Assembly: GCA_964401135.1 (NCBI GenBank)
Contig: CAYNXC010000002.1
Location: 16,457-80,456 of the forward strand
Direction of reading: 5' to 3'
DNA from: an uncultured Candidatus Saccharibacteria bacterium
GTDB taxonomy: Bacteria > Patescibacteriota > Minisyncoccia > Phycocordibacterales > UBA9988
Length of the DNA: 64,000 nucleotides
The notes beneath the pieces are model-generated. The model was not told where the DNA came from. It searched no databases and saw only the letters and a program-made list of their open reading frames with translations. Below, piece after piece: positions 32,667-33,911 of this stretch. The stretch's first letter is position 1, and each line of letters begins with the position of its first letter. The position numbers and the translations under genes were made by a program.

Positions 32667-33911
32667 ATGCCCGACGAATATCGCAATCATCATTACGTAC
32701 CACAGTGGTACCAAAAGAAGTTCATGCTACCGAACGAGCATGAGTTATTTCACTTGGATTTAAAACCCGAGACGTTCACCGATCCTCGCGGCGTGGTTCA
32801 TACCAAGAAGCCATTACGGCGACAAGGTAGTAAAAAGTGTTTCGTCCAAGAGGATCTTTATACGACGAAGATTCAAGGTATCGAAACAAAGGATATAGAG
32901 AAATATTTCTTCGGCGATATTGATACCAAAGGTCGTCCTGCTGTCGAATATTTCGAGGGGTTTGATTATCCCCTTAAACCCTGGGGTGAATCACTTCAGG
33001 ACATCATGCGTTACATGAGTACACAGAAGCTCAGGACTCCGAAAGGTCTATCATTTCTTAGCGAGAAAATTGGAAGTAAGGATAAGGACGCGATTCTACG
33101 CAATATGATCCGAGTGCGTAATGTTCATGCCGCTATTTGGATGGAATGCGTCTGGCTTATTGCAGACGCTTCACAGTCGGAGACTAAATTCATCATCTCA
33201 GACCATCCCGTTACTGTTTATAATCGTGAATGCGGTCCTCGATCCAGTTACTGTCGAGACTCAAATGACCCCGAGATATGGCTTCAAGGTACGCATACAA
33301 TTTTTCCACTTTCCATAGATAAGGTTCTCATTCTCACAAATTTATCCTGGGTGCGGAATCCATATCAATCCGCAACCAATCTACGACCGAATCCAAATCC
33401 ATACCGCAATGCGATATTCAAATTTACTGACGTTCAGGTTCGACGACAATTAAGTGAACAAGAGGTACGAGAAATCAATTTCATCATAAAAAGCCGAGCT
33501 TCCCGATATGTAGCCGCAGCCAAAGAAGAATGGCTTTACCCAGAAAGACATGTATCCAAATCAGATTGGAACAAATACGGTCATGGATATCTTTTGATGC
33601 CCGATCCTCGCGCTATTCATTGGGGAGGAACCATAATGTGGGGCGGTGGCCCAGGCGGTCCAGGTGCAATGGATGAATATGGAAGACTGCCCGGAGATCC
33701 TGATTTTGAAGCAGAGACAACCAAAGGTAAGGAGTACCAAACGCTCCCTTGGTTTCAGGGAGAATTTGCAAAGCTGTTCGGTCCTTATCGCCGAGGCCGT
33801 TGTATGCAACATATTGAAATTGAAAAGGAACGGGACGATGATGAATTTCACCAGTACCATCTCGGTCTTCAGAAAAAGAGCTATAAGGAACGACACGGCA
33901 AGAAGAAATAG
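32667..33911 (+). CDS. DUF4238 domain-containing protein (candidate anti-phage protein)
   Basis: The N-terminal motif NHHYVPQWYQKKF matches the hallmark HxVPQxYLxxF start of DUF4238. The ORF-track GTG start at 32610 is less likely than the ATG at 32667. Confidence 0.7.
   Translation: MPDEYRNHHYVPQWYQKKFMLPNEHELFHLDLKPETFTDPRGVVHTKKPLRRQGSKKCFVQEDLYTTKIQGIETKDIEKYFFGDIDTKGRPAVEYFEGFDYPLKPWGESLQDIMRYMSTQKLRTPKGLSFLSEKIGSKDKDAILRNMIRVRNVHAAIWMECVWLIADASQSETKFIISDHPVTVYNRECGPRSSYCRDSNDPEIWLQGTHTIFPLSIDKVLILTNLSWVRNPYQSATNLRPNPNPYRNAIFKFTDVQVRRQLSEQEVREINFIIKSRASRYVAAAKEEWLYPERHVSKSDWNKYGHGYLLMPDPRAIHWGGTIMWGGGPGGPGAMDEYGRLPGDPDFEAETTKGKEYQTLPWFQGEFAKLFGPYRRGRCMQHIEIEKERDDDEFHQYHLGLQKKSYKERHGKKK

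Follow-up and report, generated by a model that had tools for sequence, protein, structure and literature searches.

A divergent DUF4238 gene at the edge of a recently mobile serine-recombinase element in a Patescibacteria genome: a candidate stand-alone immunity factor

We analyzed a stretch of 64,000 nucleotides (nt) from an uncultured member of the Patescibacteria (contig CAYNXC010000002.1, positions 16,457 to 80,456), subsequently called the window, and found that the first gene of a recently mobile element with defined ends, which carries its own large serine recombinase, belongs to the DUF4238 family. The gene (32667–33911, plus strand) is an intact open reading frame (ORF), matches PF14022 in Pfam and encodes a protein of 414 amino acids (aa) that belongs to a subfamily with a typical length of ~412 aa. 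The best inference for this gene is that it would act as a stand-alone immunity or exclusion factor against phages or competing mobile DNA, a reading to which we assign a probability of about 0.5. A distant relative from a P2 hotspot, Rst_DUF4238, acts against T7: Rousset et al. (2022) found that a single DUF4238 protein encoded in the P2 hotspot of E. coli TA007 confers strong T7 resistance (PMC9122126). A first-pass annotation of the window, which was made from the letters alone, had correctly pointed to stand-alone anti-phage genes of this family, of which one protein was tested.

The DUF4238 gene opens a recently mobile element

The integrative element occupies positions 32590–43180 (~10.6 kb, or ~7.6 kb without a transposon that arrived later) and was bounded by comparison with two further contigs, L093 and L095. 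It starts directly after the gene for tRNA-Ser(GGA) (32504–32589, plus strand, detected with ARAGORN), whose 3′ end is the integration site on the attL side; the DUF4238 gene had thus rightly been called the first gene of an island. L093, a 7.9-kb contig from another run, encodes a protein identical to the DUF4238 protein of the window and matches the window over exactly 32568–36522 and 39487–43183 with 99.85% identity; the left block has five mismatches, four of which fall within the 3′ end of the tRNA gene. In L093 the element lies beside tRNA-Ser(TGA) instead of tRNA-Ser(GGA), and the right flanks of the two copies are unrelated. As this ~99.9% identical copy has a different tRNA-Ser and a different flank, it defines both the boundaries of the element and its recent movement: the element has inserted at two different tRNA-Ser genes via a shared core of 4 bp. 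The core, CCGC, is common to both junctions, with the left end directly after the tRNA sequence ...TCCGC and the right end reading ...CCCCCGC; comparison of the junctions in the window and in L093 places the core of the attR side at 43177–43180. A search for an attR repeat, which would duplicate the tRNA 3′ end, found none. The short shared core and the missing long attachment (att) repeat are consistent with a serine recombinase. The predicted attP junction is ...CCCATAGCCCCCGC joined to ACTAAGAACCTGG..., and the predicted empty attB reads ...CCCTCTCCGC joined to AAATTGAAAC...; neither an excised circular form nor a same-strain empty site of the element was recovered. At the right end of the element (43155–43180) a palindrome, GGGTACCGTACCC, is located ~10 nt inwards, and the GTACCT-containing motifs AAGTACCTAAGG and CAGGTACCTAG are found just inside the left end (32590–32660). 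These three sequences are candidate binding sites of the serine recombinase in the reconstituted attP.

The recombinase gene (33915–35225, minus strand, 436 aa) encodes the Pfam domains Resolvase, Recombinase and Zn_ribbon_recom, and its product matches the PHROGs integrase family phrog_95 with an E-value of 3.7e-65. It is convergent with the DUF4238 gene, and only 3 nt separate their stop codons in the window. With the three domains of its recombinase, discrete ends and more than one target site, the element is of the large-serine-recombinase type. Beyond ~43.25 kb housekeeping genes resume (cupin, EF-P, sigma factor, RecA, FtsK); the host belongs to the Patescibacteria/Parcubacteria, and its RecA is 91% identical to that of Cand. 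Vogelbacteria.

The second contig, L095 (RecA 98% identical), shows synteny with the window up to exactly 32589 (91.6%) and again from about 43249, and has no DUF4238 gene in the corresponding slot. Since it bears other cargo between the syntenic flanks, the slot at tRNA-Ser(GGA) is a variable hotspot. The cargo of L095 (reverse complement, 1872–7117) comprises a DUF2975-HTH-DUF2975 arrangement, a Schlafen-like (SLFN-g3) helicase with a MazG-like gene, and a GIY-YIG gene. A pair of Schlafen-like helicase and MazG also flanks a DUF4238 homologue in a Magasanikbacteria genome (L006–L009), and may be a recurrent defence-type pair in genomes from the candidate phyla radiation (CPR).

In its organization the element resembles tRNA-targeted islands with att-proximal ‘moron’ genes: an accessory gene sits at the edge beside the recombinase and the att site, integration takes place at the 3′ end of a tRNA gene, and the cargo of one chromosomal slot varies among close relatives. 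It differs from them in that no capsid, terminase, replication or conjugation genes were found in the element by Pfam, ORF review and the gene calls of L093, and in that a large serine recombinase with a 4-bp core is used, in contrast to a tyrosine integrase and a long direct repeat derived from the tRNA.

The close spacing of the two stop codons could also mean that DUF4238 is a resident host gene and that the recombinase element integrates at an attB in its 3′ end, for which the large number of DUF4238 loci without a recombinase speaks as well. We regard this as hardly conceivable. The identical DUF4238 gene moved with the element to the other tRNA-Ser gene in L093, the synteny with L095, which is devoid of the gene, breaks at the 3′ end of the tRNA and hence upstream of DUF4238, and different tRNAs (Ser of four anticodons, Gln, Trp and Leu) precede the gene across genomes. 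In view of the relocation in L093 and the synteny break in L095 the host-gene model was rejected.

A divergent and strongly constrained branch of DUF4238

The assignment to DUF4238 had initially been made from the N-terminus of the protein (MPDEYRNHHYVPQWYQKKF) and was confirmed by a hidden Markov model (HMM) search: PF14022 matches the window protein in two stretches with 62.8 bits (E-value 4.5e-17) at a gathering cutoff of 27, and PF14022 is also the precomputed family of all its close homologues. No match for the protein was obtained from NCBIfam or PHROGs. The gene is present as a single copy within the window. An alternative GTG start at 32610 is possible and would add 19 residues; however, the ATG at 32667 is the supported start, because homologues begin at the equivalent residue in the consensus of a 61-sequence alignment and because the nucleotide homology to L011, one of the closest homologous loci, starts exactly at 32667. 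No hydrophobic segment fit for a transmembrane helix was found in the protein, which appears to be soluble and single-domain-like.

An AlphaFold2 model computed with the subfamily alignment as input predicts one compact fold with a mean predicted local distance difference test score (pLDDT) of 88.8 and a predicted template modeling score (pTM) of 0.90. The first-pass annotation had described an extended C-terminal region rich in W, P and G as a feature of this copy and had suggested a structure prediction for it. The motif is indeed present (GGTIMWGGGPGGPGAMDEYGRLPGDPDFE, at about aa 320–348), but it is not copy-specific: the C-terminal ~120 aa form a conserved module of the ~412-aa subfamily, and in the model the region is packed into the compact fold. 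Among 61 aligned homologues (58–100% identity) 70 columns are invariant, many of them within this Gly/Trp/Pro-rich region; the invariant residues include G321, G326, D336, Y338, G339, R375-R376-G377, D390 and H395. A second set is shared much more widely: in 44 diverse DUF4238 members including the tested E. coli protein, H9, F19, E78, R123, P181 and N271 never vary, and D179, T124, P125, Q16 and N186 are nearly invariant. The ratio of non-synonymous to synonymous substitutions (dN/dS) between the window gene and its homologues L011, L012 and L015 is 0.02–0.03. This low ratio together with the 70 invariant columns indicates that the window gene is functional and that the subfamily is strongly constrained.

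A profile search of the PDB sequences with the window subfamily yielded no match, and the predicted fold is without a solved relative. In a Foldseek search against viral models the sole significant match was the protein V9IQH5 (gp44, YP_009008399, itself annotated as DUF4238) of the phage Smp131, with an E-value of 9e-7, a probability of 1.0 and a target-normalized template modeling (TM) score of 0.54. Like the window gene, the gene of gp44 directly adjoins a site-specific recombinase, and its product bears the motif FIISDQPIV, a likeness to the window protein. The two differ in that gp44 has only 298 aa and 13% identity in the structural alignment, and in that its neighbour is the tyrosine integrase of a P2-like (Peduoviridae) Stenotrophomonas phage, whereas the neighbour in the window is a serine recombinase. 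No match between the window subfamily and gp44 was detected at the sequence level with tblastn against GenBank phages.

We found 2400 homologues of the window protein; the best 120 of the 2400 span 365–470 aa and are 58–100% identical over essentially the full length. An exhaustive phmmer search yielded 731 clusters (50% identity) at E ≤ 1e-3, among them the ~800-aa plasmid relatives described below. Scanning one genome per species gave 120 loci, and the best 80 of these were used for the analysis of gene neighbourhoods; these 80 together with the window constitute the 81 loci referred to below. The proteins of the 80 genome loci are 47–95% identical to the window protein and come from more than 12 phyla: Patescibacteria, Verrucomicrobia, Acidobacteria, Alpha-, Gamma- and Deltaproteobacteria, Chloroflexi, Nitrospirae, Planctomycetes, Actinobacteria and others. 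This patchy phylogenetic distribution fits horizontal transfer. In L011 the region in common with the window is the DUF4238 ORF only (86% nt and 95% aa identity), and this limitation to the ORF suggests a transfer or replacement of the size of a single gene. The DUF4238 family and its single validated defence member were already known, and close homologues are annotated as ‘DUF4238 domain-containing protein’. What is newly recognized is a divergent branch of the family that is invisible to the defence HMM and has a C-terminal module of its own.

Two unusual arrangements were found among the homologues. At a locus of another Patescibacteria genome (L003/L016, protein P0004), two tandem DUF4238 paralogues of 359 aa and 413 aa (6629–7708 and 8001–9242) are followed by an AAA_21 ATPase (9345–10961); there is no recombinase, and the locus lies ~7 kb from an HtpX gene. 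In the 660-aa protein P0121 a DNA_pol_A fragment (aa 83–188) precedes a full domain of the DUF4238 subfamily; the fusion could be genuine, or two genes of a metagenomic contig could have been called as one.

Recombinases and tRNA genes recur beside DUF4238

ORFs were called at the 81 loci and the neighbouring genes were clustered. The clustering revealed no recurrent partner gene apart from site-specific recombinases, and since there is no other conserved partner the DUF4238 gene is stand-alone, with a single-gene architecture. The only strongly recurrent neighbour is a large serine recombinase of ~440 aa, present in 15 of the 81 loci. In nine loci, the window included, DUF4238 and recombinase form a tail-to-tail pair: eight of the nine pairs are stop-to-stop (−14 to +11 nt) and the ninth pair is 405 nt apart, with DUF4238 identities of 60–100%. 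When the Pfam domains of 150 ORFs no more than 2.5 kb from the gene were counted, Resolvase (7), Recombinase (5), Zn_ribbon_recom (5) and Phage_integrase (3) ranked highest, and phage-like ParB-methylase, terminase-like and small helix-turn-helix (HTH) genes recur in seven loci. Furthermore, a tRNA gene on the same strand lies within 400 nt upstream at 10 of 78 DUF4238 loci; for other ORFs this holds in 22 of 1077 cases (odds ratio 7.05, P = 2e-5). These upstream tRNAs vary between genomes: Ser-GGA, Ser-CGA, Ser-TGA, Gln, Trp and Leu were found. The enrichment of DUF4238 near mobile-element genes (recombinases, tRNA att sites) is therefore clear, and the recurrent pairing of this branch with tRNA-targeting serine-recombinase elements is new, as is the well-delimited and evidently active element in a CPR genome. 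At one further locus (L019, 9841–11284) tRNA-Ser(GGA) is followed by DUF4238 without a recombinase, possibly the remnant of an element.

The pairing raises the possibility that the DUF4238 protein serves the adjacent serine recombinase as an accessory factor, either as a recombination directionality factor (RDF) or as a regulator of excision and integration. Such a role would agree with the eight stop-to-stop pairs among the 81 loci, with the location of the gene between att site and recombinase gene, and with a modest co-divergence of DUF4238 and recombinase (Spearman 0.44, P = 0.007); also, the known RDFs of serine integrases are diverse and mutually unrelated. However, 72 of the 81 loci have no directly adjacent ~440-aa serine recombinase, and on this ground we disfavour the accessory role and rate it as very unlikely. 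The loci without an adjacent recombinase include the closest homologues L011 and L012 (95%), linked copies are intermixed with unlinked ones when ranked by identity, and some copies are found beside tyrosine integrases or among housekeeping genes. Moreover, the tested E. coli relative and gp44 of Smp131 occur in P2-like phages, which use tyrosine integrases.

A possible role in immunity

The DUF4238 gene travels as accessory cargo of mobile elements, in the window as the attL-proximal first gene of a 7.6-kb element that its large serine recombinase moves into the 3′ ends of tRNA-Ser genes. Under the immunity reading its protein would protect the carrier cell, and hence the element, from incoming phages or rival mobile DNA. 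After integration the gene is positioned 77 nt downstream of the tRNA-Ser gene in the same direction; because no promoter-like or terminator-like site was detected in this gap (32590–32666), it could be expressed constitutively by read-through. The protein alone would have to be both sensor and effector: H9, E78, R123, P181 and N271 together with D179, T124, P125, Q16 and N186 may form an active or ligand-binding centre, and the subfamily-specific C-terminal ~120 residues, packed on the core, might confer target specificity. A broader version of this proposal, which we offer tentatively, is that the whole ~412-aa branch could form an immunity system of one protein, widespread and exchanged horizontally, that is missed by current HMMs and that, in Patescibacteria, would be located att-proximally on a family of serine-recombinase elements targeting tRNA-Ser (and Gln/Trp) and be activated by tRNA read-through upon integration.

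If the immunity reading holds true, CPR bacteria would have in this gene a native defence gene that is tractable and open to experiment; the defence systems identified so far in Patescibacteria are few (PMC12366544). It would also extend the reach of DUF4238 immunity well beyond P2-like prophages. The locus in any case offers a DUF4238 branch that is compact, under strong constraint, very widely exchanged and not flagged by defence annotators, and the high-confidence structural model and the short list of invariant residues (H9, E78, R123, D179/P181, N271) are useful for mutagenesis. In addition, a CPR genome here provides a small and evidently active element that is cleanly bounded and has junctions known at two tRNA-Ser genes; its serine recombinase and att sites might find practical use in CPR genetics.

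In order to compare the window protein with the tested E. coli protein, we recovered the sequence of the latter from Table S2 of Rousset et al. and used it as a positive control: the PADLOC model PDLC03000 (‘DUF4238-Pers’) matches it with 718 bits. An hhalign comparison of the subfamily profile with the tested protein gave a probability of 89% and an E-value of 2e-6 over window residues 5–218 and aligned the N-terminal motif HH(F/Y)(L/V)xQxY(L/Q)KxF as well as RTP, SD(H/N)PV and FP(V/L)S. Both proteins are PF14022 members encoded by a single gene without a partner on an integrating mobile element. In contrast, the carrier is a P2-like phage in the case of Rst_DUF4238 and a serine-recombinase element of Patescibacteria in the window; the proteins differ in length (306 aa versus 414 aa), only residues 5–218 align (~27% identity), and the window protein has the extra conserved C-terminal module of ~120 aa. 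As to the surroundings, single DUF4238 loci are rich in genes of the toxin-antitoxin (TA) and abortive infection (Abi) type (zeta toxin, PemK, RhuM, Schlafen-like helicase with MazG; AAA_21), and further defence-type neighbours elsewhere are Lit/Peptidase_U49, AbiLi and an ATPase-Toprim.

Several observations weigh against a role in immunity. PDLC03000 and the remaining PADLOC models did not match the window protein at E ≤ 0.01, E ≤ 1 or E ≤ 10. BLASTP aligned only 87 aa of the window protein with the tested protein at 28% identity, which is marginal, and the hhalign alignment covers only half of the window protein. Rousset et al. do not say how the tested protein acts (PMC9122126), and a survey from 2024 still classes Rst_DUF4238 as unclassifiable. 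The subfamily was not found in GenBank phages with tblastn or in a scan of IMG/VR contigs, and some copies, such as that in L011, are isolated among housekeeping genes (RNR and others in L011). With PADLOC at E ≤ 1e-5, 171 families were matched among 150 ORFs within 2.5 kb of DUF4238 and 123 families among 150 ORFs at a distance of 6–10 kb, the counts being per family and not per ORF with a match; near and far sets both contain defence-type matches. PADLOC matches are thus not clearly more frequent near DUF4238 than in the 6–10 kb control.

As hhalign aligns the motifs while BLASTP is marginal and the defence HMM remains silent, the window protein and the tested E. coli protein are true but distant homologues, and the transfer of a defence function to the window protein would be an extrapolation across a very distant relationship. 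PDLC03000 would not call the window protein Rst_DUF4238, the name that the first-pass annotation gave for DUF4238 proteins in DefenseFinder. Its suggestion of a candidate single-gene anti-phage system stands in so far as the gene is a family member, stand-alone and mobile; it is weakened by the silent defence HMM and the very distant tested relative.

The remote homology to a defence protein, the silence of the HMM and the lack of a clear enrichment of PADLOC matches near the gene would also be expected if DUF4238 were non-immune cargo and the link to Rst_DUF4238 reflected an ancient fold only. The gene could then be involved in addiction or stabilization, in competition between elements that has nothing to do with phages, or in host interaction and fitness of an epibiotic lifestyle. 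The element also bears a very large surface protein (DUF2341/LamG/fn3/PG_binding), which suggests cargo with an effect on the biology of the cell surface, and the ~800-aa plasmid relatives described below have an additional C-terminal region of ~430 aa. We consider a non-immune function possible but rather doubtful: a single gene without partner speaks against a classical toxin-antitoxin module, the wide spread of the subfamily, which includes free-living Proteobacteria and Acidobacteria, speaks against an epibiont-specific role, and the att-proximal ‘moron’ position and the neighbours of TA/Abi type are a better fit to immunity.

Proteins of ~800 aa with the architecture DUF4238-SEC-C are far closer to the window protein than the tested protein is, with 36–42% identity over their N-terminal ~345 aa. 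Like the window gene their genes are found on mobile elements, in this case large or conjugative proteobacterial plasmids (for example Aeromonas pAsa4b and Klebsiella pZ0117KP0003-2). Unlike the window protein they lack its C-terminal module; a SEC-C zinc motif takes its place, followed by ~430 aa of conserved sequence. This region has no relative in Pfam or PDB, and a profile search against PDB matched the SEC-C zinc motif alone. Examples are P0144, P0146 and P0150 and the plasmid loci L091 (7989–10370) and L092 (7944–10367), and in pAsa4b the gene is flanked by the bet/exo side and by traN. Some relatives match the PADLOC models ‘E2/E1-E2’ and ‘PDC-S12’; the E2 matches are probably driven by SEC-C.

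A later transposon and the other genes of the element

The first-pass annotation had placed the DUF4238 gene next to a recombinase and a restriction-modification (R-M) module borne by an insertion sequence. Both neighbours exist, the former being the serine recombinase at 33915–35225 and the latter lying at 37198–39473 within an IS1595-family transposon (36523–39495). This transposon has imperfect terminal inverted repeats of 26 nt and is flanked by an 8-bp target duplication, TTATTTAA, at 36515–36522 and 39496–39503. It encodes an IS1595 transposase (37198–38115, plus strand; DDE_Tnp_IS1595, 149.6 bits), a Dam-like D12 N6-adenine methyltransferase (38117–39025, plus strand; 203 bits) and a PD-(D/E)XK nuclease (38937–39473, plus strand; PDDEXK_11, 131 bits, with a weak DpnII-like match), in addition to an uncharacterized 177-aa ORF (36552–37085, minus strand). 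With transposase, inverted repeats, target duplication, methyltransferase and restriction endonuclease all present, it is an IS1595 transposon carrying a type II R-M pair. The transposon is precisely missing from L093, and because this contig is otherwise ~99.9% identical, the R-M module is a later insertion of IS1595 into the element. The DUF4238 gene does sit on a mobile island in a CPR host; the R-M module, as a secondary arrival, gives no indication of an original defence-island context.

The transposon splits the gene of the surface protein (DUF2341/LamG/fn3/PG_binding) into a 5′ part (35667–36522, plus strand; DUF2341) and a 3′ part (39496–42190, plus strand, with an ORF at 39728–42190; Laminin_G_3, fn3, Pur_ac_phosph_N and PG_binding_1); in L093 the gene is contiguous and intact and encodes 1175 aa. 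Between recombinase and surface protein lies a gene for a small Cro/C1-type HTH regulator of 70 aa (35350–35562, minus strand; HTH_3). In PADLOC it is best matched by R-M ‘Control_protein’ models (E-value 1.5e-21); as it is also present in the transposon-free L093, it is the element's own regulator and not a controller of the R-M module. Two unrelated imperfect 29-nt direct repeats with spacings of 6903 and 6900 nt (35302–35330/42205–42233 and 38547–38575/45447–45475) were judged a coincidence, since one member is situated within the transposon that arrived later. Two small paralogous genes of the DUF5681 type lie at the element's right end (42234–43098, minus strand; at about 42235–42474 and 42581–42988 according to the gene calls of L093) and share the motif LKPFQSG(F/Y)DPRRN..GRP.G; PF18932 (DUF5681) was called on their counterpart in L093.

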